Assembly: GCA_009779135.1 (NCBI GenBank)
Contig: WREW01000001.1
Coordinates: 173,498-237,497 of the forward strand
Source: Alphaproteobacteria bacterium
GTDB lineage: Bacteria; Pseudomonadota; Alphaproteobacteria; UBA9219
Direction of reading: 5' to 3'
DNA: 64,000 nucleotides
The notes beneath the pieces are model-generated. The model did no database searches. It was not told the DNA's origin and saw only the letters and a program-made list of their open reading frames with translations. Positions within the stretch are counted from its first letter, which is position 1, and each line of letters begins with the position of its first letter. The position numbers were made by a program, and so were the translations under genes. Positions 3,001 to 35,078 of the stretch are shown in pieces.

Positions 3001-4525
3001 GTTAAGCACAGGCGCAGGCTCGGGCGGACAAAACGCCATCGGCGCCACGGTTGTTTTCGGCATGCTCGTGGCCACAAGTCTGGGCCTTTTCTTCACGCCG
3101 CTGTTCTTTGTTTTGATTACGAACATCTTTGGCCGCGTGCGCCTGCCTAAAGCTGCTTTGGCCGTCTGCCTTGTGCTTTTGTCCGGCTGCACGATGGCGC
3201 CGACTTATAAAAGGCCTGATGCGCCCATCCCAAATAACTATGCGGCCCAAAGCGCGGACAATGACAAGATCGCAACACTTCCTGCGCCCGCGCAGTTTTT
3301 CAAGGATGAACCGATGGCGCGCCTTATCGGACTTGCGCTTGAAAATAATCGTGATCTGCGCCTTGCGATGCTGAATATTGAAAAAACGCGCGCGCAATAC
3401 CGCATCCAGCGCGCAGATCTTTTGCCCACGATAAACGCTACAGGCAGTTTAAACTGGCAGCATTTGCCAGCTGATATTGCAGGCGGCGGGGTCGAAAAAA
3501 CAACAAGGCAATATACGGCCAGCCTTGGTTTCAGCGCGTTTGAGCTGGATCTGTTTGGCCGTATCCGCAGCCTGAAAGATCAGGCGCTTGAAAACTTCTA
3601 TGCCGTTCAAGAAGAAGCCCGCGCCGCCAAGCTGAGCCTGACGGCAGAAGTTGCAGCCGTTTATCTGCAGCTTGTGGCAGATCGGCAGCAATATGATCTT
3701 ACGCAGGCTACGCTTGAGAACAGAAAAAAGAATCACGACATTATTTATCGCAAGTTCAAAGCGGGCATCGCCTCTGATCTCGAGCTCAGTCAGGCGGAAA
3801 GCGTTTTAAATGAAGCGCAAGCCAATCTGGCCGTCTCCGCCGCCATGATCGGGCAGGATGAAAATCACCTGATGCTTTTGATCGCCGCACCTTTGCCAAA
3901 GGATTTGCCGGGTGTGCGCAGGCTTGCCGATGTCAAGGCGTTTGAGGATGTATCTTCAGGCGCGCCGTCTTTGTTGCTGGCGCGGCGTCCCGATATTCGC
4001 GCGGCTGAACATATGTTGAAAGGCGCAGGCGCCAATATAGGGGCGGCGCGGGCCAATTTTTTCCCCATCATAAGCCTGACGGGAAATTTCGGAACGATGA
4101 GCCTTGATATGCGCAATCTTTTCGAAGGCCCAAGCCAGAGCTGGAGTTTCTTCCCGCAAATCGTGCTGCCGCTTTTCGATACGGGCCGCAACATTGCGCG
4201 TCTTGAAGTTGCCAAGGCTGAGCGCGCCATGGCCGTGGCGCGTTACGAAAAAGCCATCCAGACCGGTTTTCGTGAAGTTACTGACGCGCTGATCCAGCGC
4301 GACAATATGGCCGCTCGCCTGATGGCGCAGGAATCGCTCGTCGCTTCCACAACGCGCAGCATGGATCATGCCACGGCGCGCTATGAGGCGGGGATTGATG
4401 CTTATATCAATGTGCTTGATGCGCAGCGCTCGCTTTTCAGCGCGCAAAGCACCATGATTGCCGTGCATCTTTTGCGGGAGACCAACGCCCTAACGCTCTA
4501 TAAGGCGCTCGGCGGCGGGTGGTAG
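50..4525 (+). CDS. RND efflux permease (AcrB/HAE1 family, about aa 1-1029) continuing in frame into an outer-membrane factor lipoprotein (NodT/OprM family, from GTG at 3137); single 1491-aa ORF
   Basis: The N-terminus [45 protein letters not shown] is canonical AcrB. The C-terminal 460 aa start with a lipoprotein signal ([10 protein letters not shown]) and carry OMF motifs ([30 protein letters not shown]). No stop codon separates the two parts. Good SD (aagaagg) lies before the ATG at 50. Confidence 0.8.
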
Positions 4526-5752
4526 GAAGATTTTGGCCTTGTCATCTTTCAAAGCCACAACCCAAGGAAAGATAGTAAGGCGGTAAAAAGACTCCTGCCC
4601 GTTTTCTCTCAGGGCAAGATGGCGCGCGGGATCATCCTGCTCCCGCGCCAGCCAGAAAATCAAGAAAGGGGCCTGATCTGACGCCCTTTTCGCGCGCAAA
4701 ACCCAGACATCATCGGCACCGACATCCACGCGCTCCAAAATTATCAAGCCTTTGAGTTTTTCAAGCCCCTGCGCCACAAGCGCAAGGCTTTCCTTGACAT
4801 GGCCGCGCCCGTCCAGAAAACCGAATTGATCTTCAGCATTGTCAGGATCAGAGCCCAAGCTTTTCCATTCATACCAGATCGTCACATCAACGCCTTGACT
4901 TTTGTTAATCAGGTAAGAGCGCAGCGCATAAGCCGCCTGCTGCTGCGGTGAAGCATACCGCGTGGAATAGCCCCATTCCGTGCTTAAAAGCGGGAAGTTT
5001 TTCAAACCATGCTTTGCAAAAAAAGCACGCACCGCGTCATAAAATCCGACAACGCTTTCCGGCCTTATCGCGCCATCGCGGTAGGGATGAAGCGAAAACC
5101 CGTCAAGACAGGAAAAATCAGGATGACGCACAAGCGCGTTGAGAAAAGGATCCGCCACCACATCGCCTTGAGAGGCAAAAGCCAAATCAGGCGCCGCAAT
5201 AAAAGCATCAGGGCGCACTTCGCGCATGACTTTGCAAACCTGCATCGCCAAAGAAGTATAAGCCTTTGCGTCAGGCGCAGGCGGCCAGAAAATCGCATGA
5301 TCCGGTTCATTCCAGATCGTCCATATAAGAGGGATATTGTGATAGCGTTTCACAGCCTCCCGCGCAAAAGCGGTAAAAGCAGCGCGCGCTTCATCGCTTG
5401 CGGGCGCGGCCTGCACGCGCGTCATGCCAAAAGCGTTGGGCGGCGCTTCAATCAAACCACCGTAAAACACATGACCGACTCCAAGATGAATCACGGCGCC
5501 CAGATGATGTTTTTCAAGCTTTTCTATCAAACGATCATAAAAGCGCCAATCATAGCGCCCCTTTTGATGTTCGACATAAGGCCAAGGCATATCAAAACGC
5601 ACGCGGTCAAACCCCATGGCGGCGATTTGTGCCAGTTCCTGATCGGTGATGCGATCCGCTTTAATCTGAATGCCAAAACCGGACACGGCCTGCGCAAAGC
5701 TTTCCATGCTTGTCAAAACAAGCAAAAGACATAAAAGGACGACGCGAGCCAT
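4490..5752 (-). CDS. secreted glycoside hydrolase family 5 (cellulase-like) protein
   Basis: Signal peptide [24 protein letters not shown]5-like core with IWTIWNEPD and the TEWGY catalytic nucleophile region. I used the internal start because the longer ORF start would overlap the upstream glycosyltransferase. Confidence 0.7.
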
Positions 5753-5753
5753 C

Positions 5754-6878
5754 TTAGCGTTTTTGAAGAAGCTCTTGATAAAGAGCCATGGTTTTAAGTC
5801 CGACATCCTCGGATTTAAACCGCAAAGCCTGCGCTTTGCAAGCGTGAGCCATTTGCGCGCGCTGCCCTTCATCTAAAGAGGCAAGGCTGAGAATGCCGCG
5901 CGCCAGATCGCGCGGATCAAAAGTGCCGAGAAAACCGGTCTGTCCCGTAATCACGGTTTCCTGCGCGATGCCCATGGGCGTTGTAACGACAGGCACGCCG
6001 GCAACCAGCGCTTCAATAATCACAAGGCCGAAGCTTTCAAAATCGCTTGAGTTCACAAGCACGTCAAAAGCCGGATAATAATCCCGCGCCGGAAGACCGG
6101 AGAAAACGCGGACATGCCCCGTTTTATCCCAGCCCTTTTGCGCGATAAGCGCGATAATCTGCTCTTTAAGATGACCGTCGCCTAAAATGACCAGATGAAG
6201 ATCAGGTTTTTCAACCTGCGCGATGGCGAAACTCTCCAAAAGGCGGGGAAGGTTTTTTCCTTCGACAATGCGCCCCACAAAACCGACCAGAAAAACATCC
6301 TCGCTATAGCCCAGTTTCGCGCGCGCCTGATGCCGCTCGGCCTTGTAAAGAACATTGGTGCCGTTCCAGATGGTGTAAAGCTTGCGCGCCGGAAGATGGA
6401 GAAACTTGCGCGCATGCTGATATTCATAATCTGAAGTTGTAATGATCGCATCGCAAAAGAAGCTTAAAAACCATTCAATAACGCGGTAAATCCAGCAAGC
6501 GCCTTTATCAAGCGTGACAAAACCATGAGGTGTATAAAGTATTTTGGCGCGCGGCCAAAACACGCCCGCAAGCCGCGTCAGAGCGCCGGCTTTTGAGCTG
6601 TGTGCATGAATAATATCAAAAGGCCCGAGCTTGCGCACAAGCTTCCACAAGGAAAACCCGTCCATAACGTCATGAAGCCCCACTTGGCGGCGCATCGGCA
6701 GCGCAAAGACCGTGAGATGAGGAATAGCGTTGAGTTCCTGAACGAATAAAGCTTCAGCGCGGCTTGTGCCGTAAATCACATAGACCTGATGACCATCCTG
6801 ACTTTGCGCGCGCGCAAGATCTAAAACAATCTGGCCGGTTCCTGCACCGGCGGCTTCAACGATGTGGCAGATTTTCAT
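5754..6878 (-). CDS. glycosyltransferase family 4 (GT-B fold)
   Basis: MKICHIVEAAGAGTG N-terminus and a C-terminal EX7E-like region (ESFGLVIIEALVAGVPVV). The ORF runs to 6944, but MKICHIV at 6878 is the typical GT4 start. Confidence 0.75.
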   Translation of the reverse strand: MKICHIVEAAGAGTGQIVLDLARAQSQDGHQVYVIYGTSRAEALFVQELNAIPHLTVFALPMRRQVGLHDVMDGFSLWKLVRKLGPFDIIHAHSSKAGALTRLAGVFWPRAKILYTPHGFVTLDKGACWIYRVIEWFLSFFCDAIITTSDYEYQHARKFLHLPARKLYTIWNGTNVLYKAERHQARAKLGYSEDVFLVGFVGRIVEGKNLPRLLESFAIAQVEKPDLHLVILGDGHLKEQIIALIAQKGWDKTGHVRVFSGLPARDYYPAFDVLVNSSDFESFGLVIIEALVAGVPVVTTPMGIAQETVITGQTGFLGTFDPRDLARGILSLASLDEGQRAQMAHACKAQALRFKSEDVGLKTMALYQELLQKR

Positions 6879-28031: not shown

Positions 28032-29390
28032 TTAGTTTGTCAAACTGCGAATAGGGGCCGGAACACGACCGCCACGCGCAATCAAGGCGTTTGGTCTAAA
28101 CGGGTTGACAGCCATGACGGGCGCACTTCCGAGCAAACCGCCATATTCAATCAAATCACCCACTTTCTTGCCCGGTACAGGAATGATGCGAACGGCAGTC
28201 GTTTTGTTGTTAATCATGCCGATGGCCGATTCATCGGCAATGATAGCTGAAAGCGTTTCTGCTGTGGTATCGCCCGGCACCGCGATCATGTCGAGACCGA
28301 CAGAGCAAACGCTTGTCATAGCCAGAAGCATTTCGATATTCAGGCTTCCACGCTTGACAGCAGCGATCATGCCCGCGTCTTCACTTACAGGAATAAAGGC
28401 CCCACTCAAACCGCCAACACGTTCGGCAGCCATAACACCACCTTTTTTGACGCAATCATTAAGGAGAGCCAGAGCAAAAACCGTTCCCGCTCCACCACAG
28501 CTTTCTACCCCGATTTCTTCAAGAATATGCGCAACGCTGTCGCCTATGGCCGGAGTAGGCGCTAAAGACAAGTCAATAATGCCACATTGTGCGCCAAGCC
28601 TTGCGGCTGCTTCCTGTGCCACCAGTTGGCCCACGCGCGTAATTTTGAAGGCTGTGCGCTTGATGGTCTCGGCCACAACATCAATCCCTTTGCCGCGCAC
28701 ATGTTCAAGAGCGCGTTTAACGGCACCAGGGCCGCTTACACCTACATTGATCGTTGTGTCGCTTTCACCTACACCGTGGAAGGCTCCGGCCATAAAGGGA
28801 TTATCGGACGGTGCGTTGCAAAAAACGACCAGCTTGGCACAACCAATCGCGCCGCTATCTTTTGTAAGCTCAGCCGTTTTCTTGATAATACCGCCCATTT
28901 GACACACAAGATCAAAGTTGATTCCAGCTTTGGTGGAACCGATATTGACCGAGGAGCAAACAATCTGCGTTTGGGCCAAGGCTTCGGGTATTGAACGGAT
29001 CAGTTTTTGATCGCCTGCAGTCGTGCCTTTTTCGGCCAGTGCTGAAAACCCACCAATAAAATTGATGCCCAATTCTGTCGCGGCGGCTTGAAGAGCTTTT
29101 GCCATAGGAACGTAATTGTCCGTTTTGCAACTTTCTGCCGCAATGGCTATGGGCGTGACAGCAATGCGTTTGTTGATGATTGGCACACCAAGTTCTGCCT
29201 CAATTTCCTCACCAGTCCGAACAAGGTTTTTTGCCTTTGTTGTAATCTTGTCATAAATATTCTGGCAAAAGGCCCTTGGATTAGGATGGGCACAATCACG
29301 CAAACTGATGCCCATTGTGATGGTGCGAACGTCCAGCGTGTCTTCTGTAATCATTTTTTGTGTTTCAAAAATCTCTTGAATAGTAAGCAT
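28032..29390 (-). CDS. UPF0210 / DUF711 (PFL-like) family protein
   Basis: [30 protein letters not shown]. 452 aa. Adjacent to its usual ACT-domain partner. Confidence 0.7.
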
Positions 29391-29417: not shown

Positions 29418-29714
29418 TCACGTCATCGGATCAAGATCCGTCGGGACGATACGGTGCATAGCAAGAAACAAGCATGGTCTTAATGCCTTGATTTCAAGCC
29501 CTTGATTTTCACCTTCTTCCTTCATGCACTCTTGCAGATCCTTCAGATTTGTAATTTCTGAGCCGAAATCAGCAATCGCCGCGAAACACGCGCGGCCACC
29601 GATATTTTCTTGTCCATTACAAACAAACGCCACTTTTTTTCTATTTAGAACGTCATAAACGCGGTTGCAGACGTCAGAACCTTCTTTGCCAAATGCCATT
29701 ATGATAGCTTTCAT
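29418..29714 (-). CDS. ACT-domain protein UPF0237
   Basis: MKAIIMAFGKEG start with SD aaggaaag. About 98 aa. FRAMHRI C-terminal motif. Confidence 0.7.
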   Translation of the reverse strand: MKAIIMAFGKEGSDVCNRVYDVLNRKKVAFVCNGQENIGGRACFAAIADFGSEITNLKDLQECMKEEGENQGLEIKALRPCLFLAMHRIVPTDLDPMT

Positions 29715-29855
29715 TTTTTCTTTCCTTGTCAAAATAGGATTATTTCAGTGTTATTCATTTTCTTTTTCGGTTTCTTGTTCAACGAATCTTTGTATATGTG
29801 AGTGCTATATGCGCGTAGTCTTTGATGCCTCTTTTTGGTTAACAAGCGCAAAAAT

Positions 29856-30548
29856 CTATCCTGCTGATATGTTGACTTTCTCATTGGGGGCAAGGTAACT
29901 AGGTGTAGCCTTTTCCCACATAGAGAAAAACTGGCGGCGGAAGCCCTCGGAAACGGATCTCGATTTCACAACCGTTATTTTCGGCCATATCTCTTTGTCG
30001 GTCGGGATAAGCGCGTATTTATTGCCATAGACATAAAAGGAAACTGCATCAATATACTGTTTCGAGATGGTTCGGAATTGTAAACGTGGGCTTGAAAGCT
30101 GAGGCTCGCCCACTTCCGTCAAAAGGCATTTGATAGAAAGATCATCGTTATATTTAAGCAAGGCCTCAAGTTTTGGACAATCACCAGCACCGCATATTTT
30201 TTCTAACTCCTCAAGGCAATTCGCTACAATGATAAGCTCATGACGCGCTTGACGGGTTGTTTCCTTGATGTCATCCAGTAATTGATCCGTACTACCCACG
30301 CCATGAAAGACAGCAATATCCTCAAGTTTCCGCCGAACACCGTCAGGATCAATAAACTCAAGCCCAGCGTCTTCCATCGCCTGATAAATCAAACGAGTTG
30401 TTTCACTGCGCGGGGAAATATGACCAAGTTCCAGCTTTCGAATGGTGGCAATAGAAAGCTGTGCTGCATAAGCCAATTCTTCTTGCGACCAATCAAGAAG
30501 CGCCCGCGCGGCCTTGATTTGTCTTGCACTAAGAGGGCGTATTATCAT
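29856..30548 (-). CDS. XRE-family HTH protein with conserved C-terminal domain of unknown function (paralog 1)
   Basis: Cro/C1-type HTH (LSARQIKAARALLDWSQEELAYAAQLSIATIRKLELG), EDAGLEF...GVRR linker, C-terminal YGNKYAL segment. The ORF extends to 30626. Confidence 0.6.
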   Translation of the reverse strand: MIIRPLSARQIKAARALLDWSQEELAYAAQLSIATIRKLELGHISPRSETTRLIYQAMEDAGLEFIDPDGVRRKLEDIAVFHGVGSTDQLLDDIKETTRQARHELIIVANCLEELEKICGAGDCPKLEALLKYNDDLSIKCLLTEVGEPQLSSPRLQFRTISKQYIDAVSFYVYGNKYALIPTDKEIWPKITVVKSRSVSEGFRRQFFSMWEKATPSYLAPNEKVNISAG

Positions 30549-30795
30549 TGGCTGCTCCGATACTCTTCCATCAAATCCCCCGTTTTTCTTTTTTCGATGG
30601 TTCAGGATGCGCATAGCAAGCCACATAAAAAAAAGAGCTTTTTTTGACCTTTTCGGGCTTGTTTCTTGACCCTTAGGATCAATACAGGGGGATTTTGACC
30701 TTAAAGGCCATTTTCTTGGCCTTTTCTGCTATCCCAACAAACAAAAAGCCATGCGTGTTGGTATGGCTTGGAATATTTTTGTTTTCTTGTGTGTT

Positions 30796-31485
30796 CTAGG
30801 CGCGGATTTGTTGTTCTGTAGCGCGCGGCTGAGGCTGGATAAACGGCACAGCAAGTTCCCAGATCAGATTAAACTTGTTCTTACATTGAAGCGCCAGATC
30901 AAGGTCGCTGAATATAACAAACGTAAAATGCTCCCCAGACTTTGCCCGTAAGATAATATGGCTGTTGTTGTAAATGAAATGAGACCCCTCACTAAGATAA
31001 GTATTAGAGGTCAGCCGTGCCGTGCAGTTTTCCAGCACAGCCACCCGTTCGTGAGACCGCGCAAAAAGGCACCTCATATCAGCAAAAAGAAGGAGTTTTT
31101 GTAAGGCTTGCCAAGAACTTTTCTTGTCCATGCCAAAAGTACGCAAAAGAAGCTCTGGGTCGTCAAAAACAGCTAAAATCTCGCCTTTGTTCCTTTTGGC
31201 GTTTTGGAGCAAAAACTCAAAAAACGCTTGGCGGCTATCCGCGCCTTGAATAACTTTAAGGTCAGGTCTAAGGCGGCGAACGCCTTCGTTCTCGGTAAAC
31301 TCAAACCCAGCCCCCTCAATGGCCTTGCACAAAAGTTCCAGCGTTTTGCCGCGCGGGGAAAGGATGCCTTGCTCAAGGTTGTGAATAGTACCGCGTGAAA
31401 TGCCTGAGGCGTCCGCCAACTCCTCGCGCGTCCAGCCGAGCATCGCTCTGGCTCCTTTAATCTGATCCGGTGTGACAAATTGCAT
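30796..31485 (-). CDS. XRE-family HTH protein with conserved C-terminal domain (paralog 2)
   Basis: Same architecture: TPDQIKGARAMLGWTREELA...EGAGFEF...GVRR. Confidence 0.65.
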   Translation of the reverse strand: MQFVTPDQIKGARAMLGWTREELADASGISRGTIHNLEQGILSPRGKTLELLCKAIEGAGFEFTENEGVRRLRPDLKVIQGADSRQAFFEFLLQNAKRNKGEILAVFDDPELLLRTFGMDKKSSWQALQKLLLFADMRCLFARSHERVAVLENCTARLTSNTYLSEGSHFIYNNSHIILRAKSGEHFTFVIFSDLDLALQCKNKFNLIWELAVPFIQPQPRATEQQIRA

Positions 31486-31497
31486 AATGAGACTCGA

Positions 31498-31848
31498 TCA
31501 GTTAACGAGGTGCGTAAAATCAACTTCCATCAGGAAACAAACAGCATCTTCATAATGTCCGGAAGGAATATCTTTCACGTCTTTGACGTTAAACATTGCC
31601 GTGACAATGGCCTCCACTGTGGCCTCATCGACTTTCTCAAAAAGGGAAACATAAGATATGATGTTCTCAATCGCTTGAAGCTCCCTTTCGTTAAGGGGCG
31701 CGGCGTCCGCCTCGCGCAGGGCCTTGAGGCCTTGAGCGAGAAGCCGCAGGATGGCAGGCGGTGGGTTGTCAAAGCCAAGCTGCTTTATGGCCTGAGTGTA
31801 GAGTTCGTCAGCGGAAGGGCGTGATTTAAGGTCAGCGGGATCCATCAT
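31498..31848 (-). CDS. hypothetical protein
   Basis: 116-aa ORF immediately upstream of paralog 2 in the same orientation. Confidence 0.4.
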   Translation of the reverse strand: MMDPADLKSRPSADELYTQAIKQLGFDNPPPAILRLLAQGLKALREADAAPLNERELQAIENIISYVSLFEKVDEATVEAIVTAMFNVKDVKDIPSGHYEDAVCFLMEVDFTHLVN

Positions 31849-32043: not shown

Positions 32044-32379
32044 TATGTCCCCTCACTTCAAAATTATTTAAGCAAGGCCGTCATGGCCGCCTCATTTTGG
32101 TAGTGTAATAGATATTGCCATAGAAGACAAGATAAAAGTTTATAATAAAGATTGTTATAATTACTCTAAAAATAACTTAAACCATTACAGAATGCATGAT
32201 CCCAACCAAAGCCGCTTAATTTAGCCTTTAGTGGTTAATGGTTATTTACCAAAAATAGGTAAGAATAGACCAAAAAAAGGTAGAATCTTGCCAATTAGCC
32301 CTTTTCTTTACTTGTGAAACTATTTCTGATAAGATAATTCAAAATTATTCTGAAAGATAGACCAACGTCAGGAAAGACC

Positions 32380-33021
32380 ATGCCTACAGGAAAACAAGTC
32401 AGAGCTGCCAGAGTTCTTGCTGGATGGGATGCAGAGCATCTTGCGAAGAAAACGAAGCTCACGGCCGTAACCATTCTTAAAATTGAACGCGAAGAAGCTA
32501 CGGCACGCCCAGCTACCATGGAAAAAATTATAAAAGCCTTTTTCGAAAACGGCATTGAGTTTCTTGATAATGAAGGCCTGCGCCGCAGGAATGACATGCT
32601 TAGGGTTTTTGAGGGAAAAACACCGTACCTTGACGTTTTGGATGATGTTTTTCTAACACTGCGGGAGACAGGTGGCGAGGTTCTTTTTTCTTTTGTTTGC
32701 AACAAGCTTTCCCCACCAGAAGTTATTGAAAGCCAGATCCGTCTTCGGCGGCTTGGCATTAAGTTTCGTAGTCTCATTGAAGAAGGGGACGCCTATTGCC
32801 TATACCCTCTTAACGAGTACCGTGCTGTACCCAAGCAGTTTTTTCACCACAACATACTGGTAATATACGGGGACAAGGTCGCTTTATTTCTAAGCAAGGA
32901 CAAGCGGGCGATTATTATCCGTGATAGTGAGTTTGTGGAAACACAGCGCAAAATGTTTGAAATAGCATGGAATAATTATACAGCCCCGACAAAAACAACT
33001 GCCCCTAAGACGTATGGGTAA
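32380..33021 (+). CDS. XRE-family HTH protein with conserved C-terminal domain (paralog 3)
   Basis: GKQVRAARVLAGWDAEHLA...ENGIEFLDNEGLRRR. C-terminal IYGDKVAL segment. Its stop overlaps the CDPS-like start. Confidence 0.65.
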   Translation: MPTGKQVRAARVLAGWDAEHLAKKTKLTAVTILKIEREEATARPATMEKIIKAFFENGIEFLDNEGLRRRNDMLRVFEGKTPYLDVLDDVFLTLRETGGEVLFSFVCNKLSPPEVIESQIRLRRLGIKFRSLIEEGDAYCLYPLNEYRAVPKQFFHHNILVIYGDKVALFLSKDKRAIIIRDSEFVETQRKMFEIAWNNYTAPTKTTAPKTYG

Positions 33022-33739
33022 AACTATGGATTCGTGTCAAGAATATCGTGTCCGCGTGCGAAACAGATCAGACTGGCGAAATTATGCTCGTCTAAGGCTT
33101 CTGATTAGTGTTGGAAAACCGTATCATGAGGGCGAAAAACTCCAAGCTGTTGTTGATTGGATCAACAAAAATCCACACATAACAGAAGTTCAAGTGTGTG
33201 TTGGCGATTTTCTCCAGCGACATAATCTTATTGCCTATGGTGAAGATGAAGAACGCGCTAGTTACATGGCCTTGCTTGCCGGAACTTCATGGATAGAACG
33301 CAACGAATCCATATTATCCGGTTTACAACCTAAATGGTCATTCACACGCTGGACTGATTGGTTCGGGATAGAGGAGTTTTATAGAACCCACGCCGCTATT
33401 TTAAGATTGGAAACTGAAAATCATGCTTTCAAAAAAAGTCTTGATCTGGACGCATCCTCACTGGCGAAAAGGAAAGAACTACGGGGTGAATCCGTCCCCA
33501 AAGATCTTGTTCAGCACTCTTACAACTTCGTCACGGAAGAACTAGCTGTTTTTACCATGCTGAGTCGATGTCTGCCCGCTGCTGAAGTCTATCCCGGAAC
33601 AAGCTTGGAGGCTGTAAAATATTTACACGGAAAAGACCTTCCAGAAATACTTATCCCCTTAAAGACCAGATATATTGTTCGTATTAATTTTGAAAGGATA
33701 AAACTTTCCTCCGATGTCCTTTTGGACGGTGCCGCCTAG
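33014..33739 (+). CDS. cyclodipeptide synthase (CDPS, tRNA-dependent)-like protein
   Basis: 241 aa. LLISVGKPY matches the CDPS catalytic-Ser strand (GISAGNSYF / GVSPGNSFF). VVDWINKNPHITEVQVCVGD matches LLQW...TDVVYVD. FVTEELAVF matches YVLAELPLF. SLEAVKYLHG matches SSVLCYH. Comparisons are to AlbC, YvmC and Rv2275 as I recall them. Confidence 0.5.
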   Translation: MGKTMDSCQEYRVRVRNRSDWRNYARLRLLISVGKPYHEGEKLQAVVDWINKNPHITEVQVCVGDFLQRHNLIAYGEDEERASYMALLAGTSWIERNESILSGLQPKWSFTRWTDWFGIEEFYRTHAAILRLETENHAFKKSLDLDASSLAKRKELRGESVPKDLVQHSYNFVTEELAVFTMLSRCLPAAEVYPGTSLEAVKYLHGKDLPEILIPLKTRYIVRINFERIKLSSDVLLDGAA

Positions 33740-34227
33740 CGCAAATGCCTCATCAGATCGCGCTTTGCTTCAAAGCACACGGCATTTAAGCGAACTTTTG
33801 ACACAACTTGAAGCATGACGAAAAAGTCTTCCGCATCATCCCAATATTGCTTGTTCAAAAAAAACTAACCATTCGTAATTTTCATATTCTTCAAACCACC
33901 AATCACATTCACACCCGGCATCATAGGCTTGTTGCCGAAGATGCGGAGACGCGCGCCGAGGGTGGCGAGCGCATCAAGCATTGGCCTGTCATTGATTATA
34001 AAAATATGCGCCTCAGGCACAGGCGGAATGAAGGTGCTTGGTCGAGCCTCAGGGCTGGCCGTCAGATCATTTCCACAAGCCGCGCTTACCTTTGTGCTGT
34101 TGTTTCGGACGTTCGTGTTGTCGGCGATCATTTAAGATTATCCGGCGAAAACAAGGACATTGCCAATCTTATTGCGGCAAACGGCCAAATCAGCCTAACA
34201 AATAAAGTTCGCAGATCTATCTATGAA

Positions 34228-34451: not shown

Positions 34452-35078
34452 GTGGATCAATCGGCTAAGAACAGCAAAACCCATGCGGTTTGCCTTACCG
34501 CCACGGCTGCGCTGCCGACGCGGTTTGGCGTTTTCAAGGCGCAAAGCTTTATCGGCCAGCATGCGCGGCATGGCGGGCAGGATGTGGTCGTGTTTGCCCT
34601 CAGCATGGGCGAGGTCGCCGATGATTGCATGGTGCGGTTGCACTCGGAATGTTTGACGGGCGATGTGATGGGATCTTTGCGCTGCGATTGCGGCCAGCAG
34701 CTTGCGGCGTCTTTAAACATGATTGCGCAGGAAAAGCGCGGTCTTTTGCTGTATCTTCTGGGCCATGAAGGTCGCGGTATCGGGCTTTCGGACAAACTCA
34801 AAGCCTATGTTTTGCAAGATCAGGGCATGAACACGCTGCAGGCCAATTGCGCACTGGGTCATGCGGGGGACGAGCGCAATTATGACGCCGCGATCGCGGT
34901 GCTGCATGATTTCGGTCTGAAATCCATTCGCCTGCTGACGAACAATCCGGAAAAGATCGAAGCGCTTGAGCTCAGCGGAATCCGCATCACCGCGCGCCTG
35001 CCCTTATGGCTTGAAGAAAATCCTCACAACGCCACATATCTTGAAACAAAGCGCGATCTGATGGGACATTTGCGCTAG
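34452..35078 (+). CDS. ribA: GTP cyclohydrolase II
   Basis: RLHSECLTGDVMGSLRCDCGQQL zinc site, EGRGIGL, RLLTNNP. Closely parallels E. coli RibA. Confidence 0.85.
   Translation: MDQSAKNSKTHAVCLTATAALPTRFGVFKAQSFIGQHARHGGQDVVVFALSMGEVADDCMVRLHSECLTGDVMGSLRCDCGQQLAASLNMIAQEKRGLLLYLLGHEGRGIGLSDKLKAYVLQDQGMNTLQANCALGHAGDERNYDAAIAVLHDFGLKSIRLLTNNPEKIEALELSGIRITARLPLWLEENPHNATYLETKRDLMGHLR

Follow-up and report, generated by a model that had tools for sequence, protein, structure and literature searches.

An XYP-type cyclodipeptide synthase homolog encoded next to a two-domain XRE regulator in an alphaproteobacterial genome

Results

A CDPS homolog and an XRE regulator gene in an AT-rich stretch

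The window, i.e., the complete 64-kb stretch of alphaproteobacterial DNA analysed here, contains an AT-rich region (GC 0.40-0.51 over 29-34 kb as compared to 0.52-0.54 in the flanks), which harbours a gene for a homolog of the tRNA-dependent cyclodipeptide synthases (CDPSs) and a regulator gene directly upstream. The features are as follows:

29856..30626, minus strand: XRE_C, a second paralog without enzyme partner (MCL2468793.1)
30796..31485, minus strand: XRE_B, a paralog of XRE_A (GenBank 215-aa version MCL2468794.1)
31498..31848, minus strand: orf116, hypothetical protein MCL2468795.1
31861..32043, minus strand: orf60, a small divergent ORF without family match
32044..32379, no strand: divergent AT-rich regulatory region of 336 bp between orf60 and XRE_A
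32246..32262, no strand: putative operator O1, palindrome TTACC-N7-GGTAA
32267..32283, no strand: putative operator O2, AGACC-N7-GGTAG, centre 21 bp from O1
32380..33021, plus strand: XRE_A, a two-domain regulator of 213 aa (GenBank MCL2468797.1)
33014..33739, plus strand: homolog of XYP-subfamily CDPSs, 241 aa from ATG 33014
33736..33773, no strand: left arm of a 38-nt inverted repeat (92% complementary), beginning at the CDPS stop codon
34228..34303, minus strand: tRNA-Glu (UUC), right edge of the low-GC stretch

An earlier note on this DNA had described the ORF of 241 aa, which indeed exists, but its start is likelier to be ATG 33026, yielding 237 aa and matching both the GenBank call and the N-termini of the family. 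The residue numbers given below follow the 241-aa numbering. XRE_A ends at 33021, i.e., it overlaps ATG 33014 by 8 nt or stops 4 nt before ATG 33026. Likewise, the AT-rich stretch next to the tRNA-Glu gene is as the note had described it. A search for island boundaries revealed neither an integrase nor a direct repeat that would mark the tRNA-Glu terminus as an att-like site, and Rfam detected five tRNAs in the window and nothing else. The right arm of the inverted repeat (35041-35078) forms the 3′ end of a GTP cyclohydrolase II gene, and the repeat is possibly a rearrangement scar.

XRE_B belongs to the same length class as XRE_A and carries the same helix-turn-helix (HTH) domain, together with a second C-terminal subtype, and lacks an enzyme partner. 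Homologs of orf60 (38-51% identity) occupy the same position at the related loci L081, L082, L086 and L089, as do homologs of orf116 at L081 (55%), L086 (35%) and L089 (30%). Across subclades, the small divergent ORFs show no profile similarity (hhalign probabilities <4%). Judged by this distribution, orf60 and orf116 are accessory to a single cassette lineage.

The protein has the predicted fold and the catalytic residues of XYP CDPSs

Profile and structure comparisons agree with the core claim of the earlier note, namely a protein of the CDPS family. Phmmer searches against CDPSs in the PDB yielded Nbra-CDPS (E=5e-15), Fdum-CDPS (E=2e-12), Rgry-CDPS (E=8e-7) and BcmA (E=3e-4). The profile search that the note had suggested as a check gave significant matches to TIGR04539 (37.2 bits, E=2e-9) and PF16715 (20.9 bits, E=3e-4), neither of which reaches its curated cut-off (45 and 27, respectively), a detection threshold and not a biochemical feature. 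The structure prediction suggested as a further check resulted in a model with a pLDDT of 93.5, whose best 46 Foldseek matches comprise CDPS chains only, including one annotated as 'putative' (E down to 6e-15). The leading matches are the XYP CDPSs 5OCD, 5MLQ/9IAM, 9J61 and 5MLP with TM-scores of 0.74-0.86, as compared to 0.61-0.67 for structures of the NYH subfamily, and TyrRS stands at the tail of the list. The predicted structure thus displays the class-I aaRS-like Rossmann fold of CDPSs. By sequence comparison, the ORF is a real gene and a CDPS homolog, with a resemblance far beyond chance, and the GenBank entry for the same protein (MCL2468798.1) bears the name 'tRNA-dependent cyclodipeptide synthase'. 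Moreover, comparison with the closest relative gives dN/dS values of 0.27 and 0.23 for CDPS and XRE_A, respectively, i.e., both genes are under purifying selection.

The equivalents of Ser37, Glu182 and Tyr202 (AlbC numbering) are present as Ser32, Glu176 and Tyr193. All of the 33 homologs compared carry S32, E176, P194 and G195, and nearly all carry Y193. Ser32, located in the LLISVG strand that had been taken for the catalytic one, aligns with Ser34 of Nbra-CDPS, which is the exact column of the Ser-to-Ala variant in PDB entry 9IAM. The second strand, EVQVCVGD, was also placed correctly, as it corresponds to β-strand 58-63 of the model and bears the pocket positions 65 and 67, and the FVTEE helix carries the equivalents of Tyr178 and Glu182, with Phe172 replacing the tyrosine. 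The Tyr202 equivalent, by contrast, is Y193, followed by P194 in the near-invariant AAEVYPG. The stretch SLEAVKYLHG, which the note had read as the Tyr202/His203 region, was therefore misassigned, KYLHG lying 13 residues downstream.

The XYP subfamily is defined by a variable residue at position 40, Tyr202 and Pro203 (PMC5935735, PMC11580168). Here, the NYH hallmarks Asn40 and His203 are missing, and Lys35 and Pro194 take their places. Together with Tyr193 and the higher TM-scores to XYP than to NYH structures, this assigns the protein to the XYP subfamily. AlbC, YvmC and Rv2275, the comparators of the earlier note, are NYH enzymes and hence stem from the wrong subfamily; they have the superfamily fold and the Ser/Glu/Tyr core in common with the window protein, but are only 9-15% identical to it. 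The solved XYP enzymes Nbra-CDPS (5MLQ/9IAM, which makes cAE), Fdum-CDPS (5OCD), Rgry-CDPS (5MLP) and BcmA (9J61) share its fold, the X40/Y202/P203 signature and the catalytic Ser, Glu and Tyr, but are only about 20-23% identical to it when aligned by structure. They differ in their hydrophobic P1 pocket, which is polar in the window protein (Arg28, Glu191), and in the position of Tyr178, which is Phe here.

The residues lining P1 are R28, L30, C62, G64, W113, V179, F180 and E191, and those lining P2 are D146, S149, L150, R153, G195, S197 and L198. The gene belongs to a widespread clade that is functionally uncharacterised and has a polar P1 pocket. Clade-wide, the pocket has Arg at position 33, a bulky residue at position 35, where Gly or Pro is usual, and an acidic one at position 200. 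In the subclade of the window, pocket positions 65 and 67 are altered as well. The pocket motifs fall outside all characterised specificity groups, and a product prediction from them was discarded. In the 2017 census, as far as its text was accessible, the pocket ending WVFD is listed only for CDPS 35 and one untested Mesorhizobium protein, and the further endings searched are absent from that text. Like the window protein, Nbra-CDPS has a Leu at pocket position 35 (Leu32), and its L32A and L32G variants shift the product from cAE to cLE (PMC13062777). As Leu30 occupies the site at which Leu32 limits P1 of Nbra-CDPS to alanine, the first residue incorporated is probably small.

Tyr178, which anchors the first aminoacyl group, is highly conserved, though not strictly invariant, and the Y178F variant of AlbC is 'poorly active' (PMC3105412). 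Among the 84 CDPS sequences taken from the loci and compared, 8 have Phe at this position, and in P0002, the closest relative, Cys occupies the position of Tyr202. The presence of Phe172 therefore lowers the confidence in full activity, but leaves the homology unaffected.

Alphaproteobacterial CDPSs and earlier tests of relatives

The earlier note had considered a CDPS in an alphaproteobacterium unexpected. However, 65% of the XYP CDPSs stem from Proteobacteria, dozens of alphaproteobacterial loci exist and the GenBank name was already in place. Moreover, CDPSs from Alphaproteobacteria were already tested between 2015 and 2018, namely CDPS 27 and CDPS 35 from Micavibrio and CDPS 88 from Geminicoccus (PMC5816076), so that the claim does not hold.

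CDPS 35 (MICA_581) is the sole tested member of the XRE-linked group to which the window protein belongs. The two share the pocket type (RDSAWVFD / AQYRGIL in CDPS 35) and are 33.5% identical, and CDPS 35 retains Tyr178, in contrast to the window protein. Upon expression in E. coli no cyclodipeptide was detected (PMC5816076, supplement), for which the authors offered an incorrect start codon or tRNAs that do not suit the enzyme as possible explanations. In the native genome an XRE_A homolog overlaps the start of the gene by 4 nt, and the missing XRE partner may be another trivial explanation. As CDPS 35 was expressed alone and yielded no detected cyclodipeptide, no functional assignment can be derived from it.

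The XRE gene is a conserved partner of the CDPS clade

The XRE gene might have been taken for an incidental neighbour; it is, however, a conserved partner of the whole clade. At 46 of 80 species-level GTDB loci an XRE_A homolog is located immediately upstream of the CDPS gene on the same strand, and the pairing is additionally found at L081, L082, L083, L085 and L090. The paired genes typically overlap by 4-14 nt. The pairing follows the pocket type, Arg33 being present in 42 of 49 paired CDPSs as compared to 2 of 35 unpaired ones, and it is missing from the sampled XYP loci of Legionella, Photorhabdus, Vibrio and actinobacteria. Three cultured carriers of the pair were found, M. aeruginosavorus ARL-13, Roseobacter sp. 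HKCCA0434 and Aestuariibius sp.

No families other than XRE and CDPS recur at all 48 paired loci; all-against-all clustering of the ORFs within 6 kb yielded no third conserved gene. The apparent ORF clusters 3 and 4 turned out to be shadow ORFs on the strand opposite to the CDPS and XRE genes. Furthermore, no tailoring gene, transporter or conserved exporter recurs at these 48 loci, and the lack of an adjacent tailoring enzyme that the earlier note had reported was confirmed at the locus itself. The pairing of an entire CDPS clade with a two-domain, possibly product-sensing regulator appears not to have been reported before.

The N-terminus of XRE_A (about residues 1-66) is an HTH_3 domain above the Pfam cut-off that resembles the controller proteins of restriction-modification (R-M) systems. 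Its best match is C.Kpn2I; HipB-type domains match as well, and ComR and PlcR are among its structural matches in the PDB. The C-terminal domain (about residues 70-200), a putative sensor domain, has a phospholipase-D (PLD)/Nuc-like fold. Its HxK(x)4D site reads FFHHNILVIYGDK, i.e., Lys and Asp are replaced, and the His is conserved in less than 80% of the 46 paired XRE_A orthologs. The domain is therefore probably PLD-like by fold only and non-catalytic. Near-invariant are instead Y147, R148, N157, R123, R130 and W197. XRE regulators with such a domain, which is not modelled by Pfam, form a family of 544 clusters.

Co-inheritance of sensor domain and enzyme behind putative shared operators

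The divergence of XRE correlates with that of the CDPS (Mantel r 0.71 overall); the sensor domain taken by itself gives 0.70, the HTH 0.47. The segment 32523-33696, comprising sensor domain and CDPS, is 82.5% identical to L081, whereas 32247-32561, comprising operators and HTH, is 75% identical to L086, a cassette encoding an Asn synthase, the sensor domain of which is only 27% identical to that of XRE_A. Sensor domain and enzyme are thus co-inherited, while the L086-type cassette retains operators and HTH and exchanges sensor and enzyme. In related cassettes the gene following XRE encodes an Asn synthase, a methyltransferase-like protein (L089) or a protein without family call. The label 'GCS2' for the partner at L088 goes back to a weak precomputed match that was not reproduced, and the idea that the variable slot always holds an amide-bond-forming enzyme is ruled out by the methyltransferase-like gene at L089.

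The strict motif TACY-N7-RGTA occurs once in the window and is ~13-fold enriched upstream of XRE genes. The layout of two palindromes 21 bp apart is found in the window and at L081, L082 and L086. At distant loci, which evidently use other sequences, the TACC-N7-GGTA operator was not found. A sigma-70 scan beside the putative operators yielded no convincing promoter.

Discussion

In our judgement the chances are about even that the XYP CDPS-fold enzyme and its dedicated upstream two-domain XRE regulator are co-expressed as a self-contained, autoregulated module. In such a module Ser32 would accept an aminoacyl group from an aminoacyl-tRNA, a second aminoacyl group would be added with Glu176 positioning the intermediate, and Tyr193 would mediate the cyclisation of the dipeptidyl group, releasing an untailored cyclodipeptide. 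Dimers of XRE_A would occupy both TACC-N7-GGTA operators within the region of the divergent promoters and regulate the operon, and the PLD-like domain of XRE_A may sense the product of the enzyme or the enzyme itself, thereby closing a feedback loop. On the other hand, the downstream gene is variable in the related cassettes, and their logic may therefore be that of a regulator with variable cargo and not product sensing.

It is unlikely that in the polar-pocket clade, and above all in its Phe172 copy in the window, the CDPS fold has lost or never had cyclodipeptide synthesis and serves another purpose, be it aminoacyl transfer to some other acceptor, hydrolysis or sensing of aminoacyl-tRNAs, or a purely regulatory role together with XRE. 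The sub-threshold HMM scores would be in line with such a purpose, as would the replacement of Tyr178 in the window and of Tyr202 in P0002; nevertheless, the equivalents of Ser37, Glu182, Tyr202 and Pro203 are kept in nearly the whole clade, and Phe178 recurs and coincides with purifying selection in the lineage of the window (omega 0.27). The clade-wide Arg at 33, bulky residue at 35 and acidic residue at 200 point in the same direction, but the active Nbra-CDPS has Leu at position 35, too. Finally, the inactivity of CDPS 35 has the trivial explanations given above, i.e., tRNAs, start codon or partner.

We consider it quite unlikely that the pair acts as a toxin-antitoxin or abortive infection-like system, in which a CDPS-fold effector drains or misuses aminoacyl-tRNAs and XRE controls transcription and neutralises the effector via its C-terminal domain. 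The order of regulator and effector gene, the overlaps of 4-14 nt and the palindromic operators would suit such a system, although both proteins exceed the size of typical type II pairs. The likeness of the HTH to C.Kpn2I and HipB-type domains also fits, whereas PADLOC gave no match for the CDPS and only generic HTH matches for the XREs, PHROGs likewise returned HTH matches only, and the conserved polar site of the PLD-like domain is typical of small-molecule or phosphate binding. The lack of product from CDPS 35 alone has to be set against the many characterised CDPSs whose products were analysed after expression in E. coli (PMC5816076). The presence of several diverged pairs in a genome, a patchy distribution across phyla, the location of some copies near transposases or a T4SS coupling protein and a downstream gene that varies as in effector-swapping systems speak for this explanation; yet, viral contigs (2 loci) and plasmids (one symbiont) hardly ever carry the module.

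An ordinary secondary-metabolite CDPS, as envisaged in the earlier note, which makes a diketopiperazine scaffold for tailoring enzymes encoded elsewhere under a generic pathway regulator, is improbable: CDPS homology and fold are established and pathway-specific regulators are common in biosynthetic clusters, but a tailoring enzyme or transporter recurs at 0 of 48 paired loci, the sensor domain and not the HTH co-varies and is co-inherited with the enzyme, and both genes relocate together between unrelated genomic contexts.

The autoregulated module bears likeness to several known systems. TrmB regulators combine DNA binding with a sugar-binding effector domain (PF11495), for which XRE_A has no Pfam match, but employ a winged helix instead of an XRE HTH; moreover, the XRE_A family is bacterial and enzyme-linked. 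Compared to the R-M controllers C.Kpn2I and C.Esp1396I, XRE_A carries an additional sensor-like domain of 140 aa, R-M genes are missing at the locus, and the enzyme to be regulated would be a CDPS. As in signalling pairs of synthase and receptor such as LuxI/LuxR, and in the RRNPP-type XRE-HTH peptide receptors (ComR, PlcR), a signal-synthase-like gene adjoins the gene for a one-component regulator, and there are multiple diverged pairs per genome as well as regulator paralogs without synthase. The PLD-like sensor fold is unrelated to the TPR fold of RRNPP and to the autoinducer-binding fold of LuxR, and the likeness is an analogy only.

A bolder version of the module, which we put forward as a doubtful, albeit conceivable proposal, is a synthase-receptor system, in which a small polar diketopiperazine, made by the CDPS and bound specifically by the PLD-like domain, would switch the operon; the joint inheritance and joint divergence of sensor domain and enzyme would support it indirectly. 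In Micavibrio, Pseudobdellovibrionaceae and other Alphaproteobacteria the system would have multiplied and diverged, so that each genome holds several 'channels', and it would represent one branch of a wider, undescribed family of cassettes that exchange a matched sensor and enzyme (CDPS, Asn synthase and others) behind a common operator and HTH.

If none of these proposals holds, the gene is still correctly annotated and an otherwise ordinary CDPS homolog. For decades it has been debated if diketopiperazines act as genuine bacterial signals that have receptors of their own, largely because no genetically linked pair of synthase and receptor is known to be at hand. The clade offers a compact two-gene candidate for such a pair, conserved in dozens of species. 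The apparent inactivity of CDPS 35 may reflect expression without its partner, and polar products were possibly missed. For CDPS enzymology, the clade provides a large pocket class (Arg33, bulky 35, acidic 200) without known product, in addition to natural Tyr178-to-Phe variants, and for the biology of regulators it adds a family of XRE proteins with a PLD-like sensor domain.

A cyclodipeptide synthase homolog of the XYP subfamily

The gene under study lies in a low-GC island of the window (GC 0.40-0.51 across 29-34 kb vs 0.52-0.54 in both flanks), with the following features:

28032-29390, minus strand: DUF711 protein (629 bits), left flank of the island
29418-29732, minus strand: small ORF adjoining the DUF711 gene, left flank of the island
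32246-32262: putative operator TTACC-N7-GGTAA, in the 336-bp divergent region
32267-32283: putative operator AGACC-N7-GGTAG, in the same region, 21 bp centre to centre from the former
32380-33021, plus strand: XRE_A, XRE-family regulator
33014-33739, plus strand: cyclodipeptide synthase (CDPS) ORF, 241 aa
34228-34303, minus strand: tRNA-Glu

The DUF711 gene and the neighbouring small ORF appear to be ordinary chromosomal genes. The 241-aa form of the CDPS, used here for residue numbers, is the JGI and ENA gene call. GenBank MCL2468798.1 ('MAG: tRNA-dependent cyclodipeptide synthase [Alphaproteobacteria bacterium]') is the 237-aa version starting at the in-frame ATG 33026, with which the N-termini of homologs agree better. 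The last base of XRE_A is 33021, which gives an 8-nt overlap with the CDPS gene if ATG 33014 is the start and a 4-nt gap if it is ATG 33026.

The protein is a CDPS by homology and fold. The profiles PF16715 (Pfam CDPS; E=3.3e-4, 20.9 bits, cut-off 27 bits) and NCBIfam TIGR04539 (E=2.2e-9, 37.2 bits, cut-off 45) matched below threshold, and a PDB sequence search was clearer, yielding the CDPSs of Nocardia brasiliensis (E=5e-15) and Fluoribacter dumoffii (2e-12) and, more weakly, that of Rickettsiella grylli (8e-7) and BcmA (3e-4). An AlphaFold2 model from 33 homologs reached a mean pLDDT of 93.5. In a Foldseek comparison with the PDB its first 46 matches were all CDPS chains, led by four XYP enzymes (E down to 6e-15, TM 0.74-0.86), with the NYH enzymes AlbC, YvmC and Rv2275 next (TM 0.61-0.67) and TyrRS at the tail. 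The PDB matches and the Foldseek result uphold the assignment to the CDPS family in the earlier note; that note had named a missing profile match or a different fold as counter-evidence, and we found significant, if sub-threshold, profile matches and the CDPS fold in the model. The assignment is right but ordinary; the gene is already annotated as a CDPS in GenBank.

In the alignment, Ser32 (motif LLISVG) shares a column with Ser34, the catalytic residue of the N. brasiliensis enzyme (Nbra-CDPS); this is precisely the column at which the S34A variant (PDB 9IAM) departs from 5MLQ. The equivalents of Tyr178 and Glu182 lie inside FVTEE as Phe172 and the invariant Glu176, and the Tyr202 equivalent is Tyr193-Pro194 in AAEVYPG, near-invariant across the family. 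Lys35 at position 40 and Tyr193-Pro194 thus constitute the XYP signature and not that of NYH (PMC5935735, PMC11580168). Three of the four motifs proposed earlier stand, including the catalytic Ser and the Phe at the Tyr178 position, which is indeed residue 172; the Tyr202/His203 site had been misplaced in KYLHG instead of AAEVYPG, and the NYH enzymes used for comparison belong to the wrong subfamily.

Likewise, the view that a CDPS is unexpected in an alphaproteobacterium does not hold. Proteobacteria are the source of 65% of XYP CDPSs, and alphaproteobacterial enzymes were assayed earlier: CDPS 27 of Micavibrio aeruginosavorus EPB makes cGN, CDPS 35 of M. aeruginosavorus ARL-13 was inactive, and CDPS 88 of Geminicoccus roseus gave no product (Gondry et al. 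and tables therein, PMC5816076). Moreover, many of the 80 CDPS loci from a scan with one genome per GTDB species are alphaproteobacterial (Rhizomicrobium, Xanthobacteraceae, Rhizobiaceae, Micavibrio, Roseobacter, Aestuariibius, Rickettsiales). Among plasmid records, a CDPS relative (24.5% identity, annotated as hypothetical protein) occurs only in MK748462-MK748465 of the sponge symbiont Candidatus Endohaliclona renieramycinifaciens.

A polar substrate pocket and a Phe in place of Tyr178

Pocket positions were assigned by reference to CDPS 35 (MICA_581), for which pocket strings have been published. On this basis the window protein has P1 = RLCGWVFE and P2 = DSLRGSL. Members of its close clade (44-79% identity) show almost exclusively RMSNWVFE/DALRGNL, and a wider set of relatives P1 = R[QEH]CNW[VA]FD. 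The polar P1 group is marked by Arg33, by a bulky residue other than Gly at 35, and by Asn/Gly at 67 and Asp/Glu/Ser at 200, and hydrophobic P1 pockets (e.g. ILAAWIMV) occur in relatives from Legionella, Photorhabdus, Xenorhabdus, Vibrio and Streptomyces. CDPS 35 (RDSAWVFD/AQYRGIL) belongs to the polar group, as do all of its best matches. Within the accessible part of the 765-member CDPS census from 2017, the ending WVFD appears only in CDPS 35 and an unassayed Mesorhizobium protein, and the other polar-group endings searched there were not found; no member of the group has a reported product. In Nbra-CDPS, Leu32 (AlbC position 35) limits P1 to alanine; replacing it by Ala or Gly (L32A, L32G) leads to leucine (PMC13062777). 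Leu30 of the window protein occupies this position, so that by analogy a small first residue is plausible.

In AlbC, the Y178F substitution leaves the enzyme 'poorly active' and lowers acyl-enzyme formation (PMC3105412). Phe at this position is common to the window protein and its two nearest relatives and is found in 8 of 84 locus-derived CDPS sequences (Leu in one more); positions 65 and 67 are also altered in the window's subclade. The closest relative, P0002 from comparison locus L081 (10001-10732, 79% identity), combines this Phe with EVCPG, i.e. Cys at the near-invariant Tyr202 equivalent. Comparison of the window with L081 yields dN/dS values of 0.27 (CDPS) and 0.23 (XRE gene), which count against decay and indicate that the window protein is maintained by selection.

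The CDPS gene is paired with an XRE regulator

Homologs of XRE_A were surveyed by tBLASTn of the window proteins against all fetched loci. In 46 of the 80 GTDB loci, as well as in comparison loci L081, L082, L083, L085 and L090, a homolog of ~210-220 aa directly precedes the CDPS gene in the same orientation, the XRE stop and the CDPS start usually overlapping by 4, 8, 11 or 14 nt. Paired loci are mostly Alphaproteobacteria, at least ten being Micavibrio; further paired taxa are Pseudobdellovibrionaceae, three Bacteroidota, one Nitrospinaceae and one Solirubrobacterales MAG. Pairing follows pocket type, as Arg33 is present in 42/49 paired vs 2/35 unpaired CDPSs, and upon clustering of ORFs within 6 kb, XRE and CDPS were the only families present in all 48 paired loci examined. 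In the M. aeruginosavorus ARL-13 region (L083), CDPS 35 (99% identity) follows an XRE_A homolog with a 4-nt overlap; hence, the assay of CDPS 35 lacked its conserved partner. A literature search retrieved no published link between XRE regulators and CDPSs.

Residues 7-54 of XRE_A form an HTH_3 domain (26.3 bits, cut-off 23), and the best match of its family profile is the R-M controller protein C.Kpn2I (E=7e-12). No Pfam model covers the C-terminal, PLD-like putative sensor domain. Its HKD motif is degenerate, the His not being conserved among 46 CDPS-linked orthologs, in which Tyr147, Arg148, Asn157, Arg123, Arg130, Arg190 and Trp197 are near-invariant (Asn157 is the consensus residue; the window XRE_A has His). 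A search with the sensor domain alone retrieved 544 cluster representatives (E<=1e-3) out of 1.84 billion. Almost all of these are 200-225 aa long and carry the domain at ~70-212, which indicates a fixed architecture. Rare long proteins (P0210, 787 aa; P0232, 1061 aa; P0188, 441 aa) contain 2-5 tandem matches, nearly all other members having one domain in ~215 aa.

Tandem CDPS genes with different pocket types were observed in L004 (793-2153), L011 (8001-9408), L055 (413-1869) and L057 (8001-9359), in L004 and L011 both behind one XRE gene. In L006 (6433-8313), the longest ORF joins a RMSNWVFE-type CDPS to an apparent C-terminal extension of ~380 aa (fusion or read-through) that has no Pfam match.

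Sensor domain and enzyme are exchanged together

Pairwise identities of XRE proteins and CDPSs are correlated across 46 pairs (Mantel r=0.71; 0/2000 permutations reached that value), the sensor domain (0.70) exceeding the HTH (0.47). Where a genome has two pairs, these are deeply diverged from each other, and closer orthologs of each exist elsewhere. The most telling evidence that sensor domain and enzyme travel together is a mosaic of the window, L086 and L081. Window 32247-32561 (operators, promoter region, HTH codons 1-61) shares 75% DNA identity with L086, which is lost at the domain junction; the L086 sensor domain is only 27% identical to that of the window, and the gene downstream of the L086 XRE encodes a glutamine-hydrolysing Asn synthase (TIGR01536, 339.9 bits vs cut-off 267.1). 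Window 32523-33696, comprising sensor domain and CDPS, is 82.5% identical to L081.

Homologs of the small minus-strand ORFs orf60 and orf116 and of the minus-strand paralogs XRE_B and XRE_C are also found on the divergent arm of L086 and L089, and the gene after XRE encodes a methyltransferase-like 347-aa protein in L089 and a 428-aa protein in L088. L086, L088 and L089 each contain, at ~3500-6500, a bidirectional cassette like the window's island. Given these shared arms, the whole low-GC island is one member of a cassette family with XRE paralogs, orf116 and orf60 on one arm and XRE plus a variable enzyme on the other.

The 5+7+5, 4, 5+7+5 operator layout is common to L081 (inverted), L082 and L086. 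Across the 64 kb of the window, the strict pattern TACY-N7-RGTA has a single occurrence; upstream of XRE genes it is ~13-fold enriched. The two palindromes are presumed binding sites, and a promoter scan did not establish the promoter geometry around them. The double-operator element of L081 (9249-9285) is 86% identical to window 32247-32283 but is flipped with respect to the XRE gene of L081.

Repeats were noted as well. A 38-nt inverted repeat (92% complementary) has its left arm at 33736-33773, beginning at the CDPS stop codon; the right arm (35041-35078) is the 3′-terminal part of the GTP cyclohydrolase II gene (34452-35078). As the arms flank tRNA-Glu and the cyclohydrolase gene, they may be the trace of an inversion or insertion at the right edge of the island. 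An exact 15-nt direct repeat, TATTTAAGCAAGGCC, is present at 30151-30165 (inside XRE_C) and 32065-32079 (between orf60 and XRE_A); by our own estimate, chance alone would produce ~0.03 pairs of this kind in 8 kb.

A proposed two-gene synthase and sensor module

Taken together, the reading with the most support is an autoregulated module of two genes, in which the XYP CDPS would synthesize an untailored, probably polar cyclodipeptide, and the cognate one-component regulator, with a sensor domain matched to the CDPS, would sense this ligand and bind the operators. The analysis documents the homology and fold of the enzyme, its pairing with XRE, selection on both genes, the operator layout and the joint inheritance of sensor and enzyme; catalysis, the product, ligand sensing and DNA binding are inferred. 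A toxin-antitoxin or controller-type module agrees with gene order, overlaps, the presence of several copies and the changing gene downstream; however, PADLOC lends it no support, and the XRE-CDPS pair is nearly absent from phage and plasmid collections. It is also possible that the CDPS fold serves another activity, in keeping with Phe172, the unusual P1 pocket and the inactive CDPS 35. A classical tailored-diketopiperazine pathway is least supported, as neither a tailoring enzyme nor a transporter recurs within 6 kb in the 48 paired loci.

In L050 (8001-9815, Rickettsiales MAG) and L072 (8001-10229, Pseudomonadota MAG), both with approximate ends, a single ORF joins an XYP CDPS domain to PAS_4-HisKA-HATPase_c, in L072 also with a receiver domain. 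These sensor-kinase fusions provide context for a possible signalling role of CDPSs. To our knowledge, the searchable literature describes none of what this analysis adds to the family: a conserved XRE-sensor/CDPS cassette, a polar-pocket clade and the modular exchange of sensor plus enzyme.
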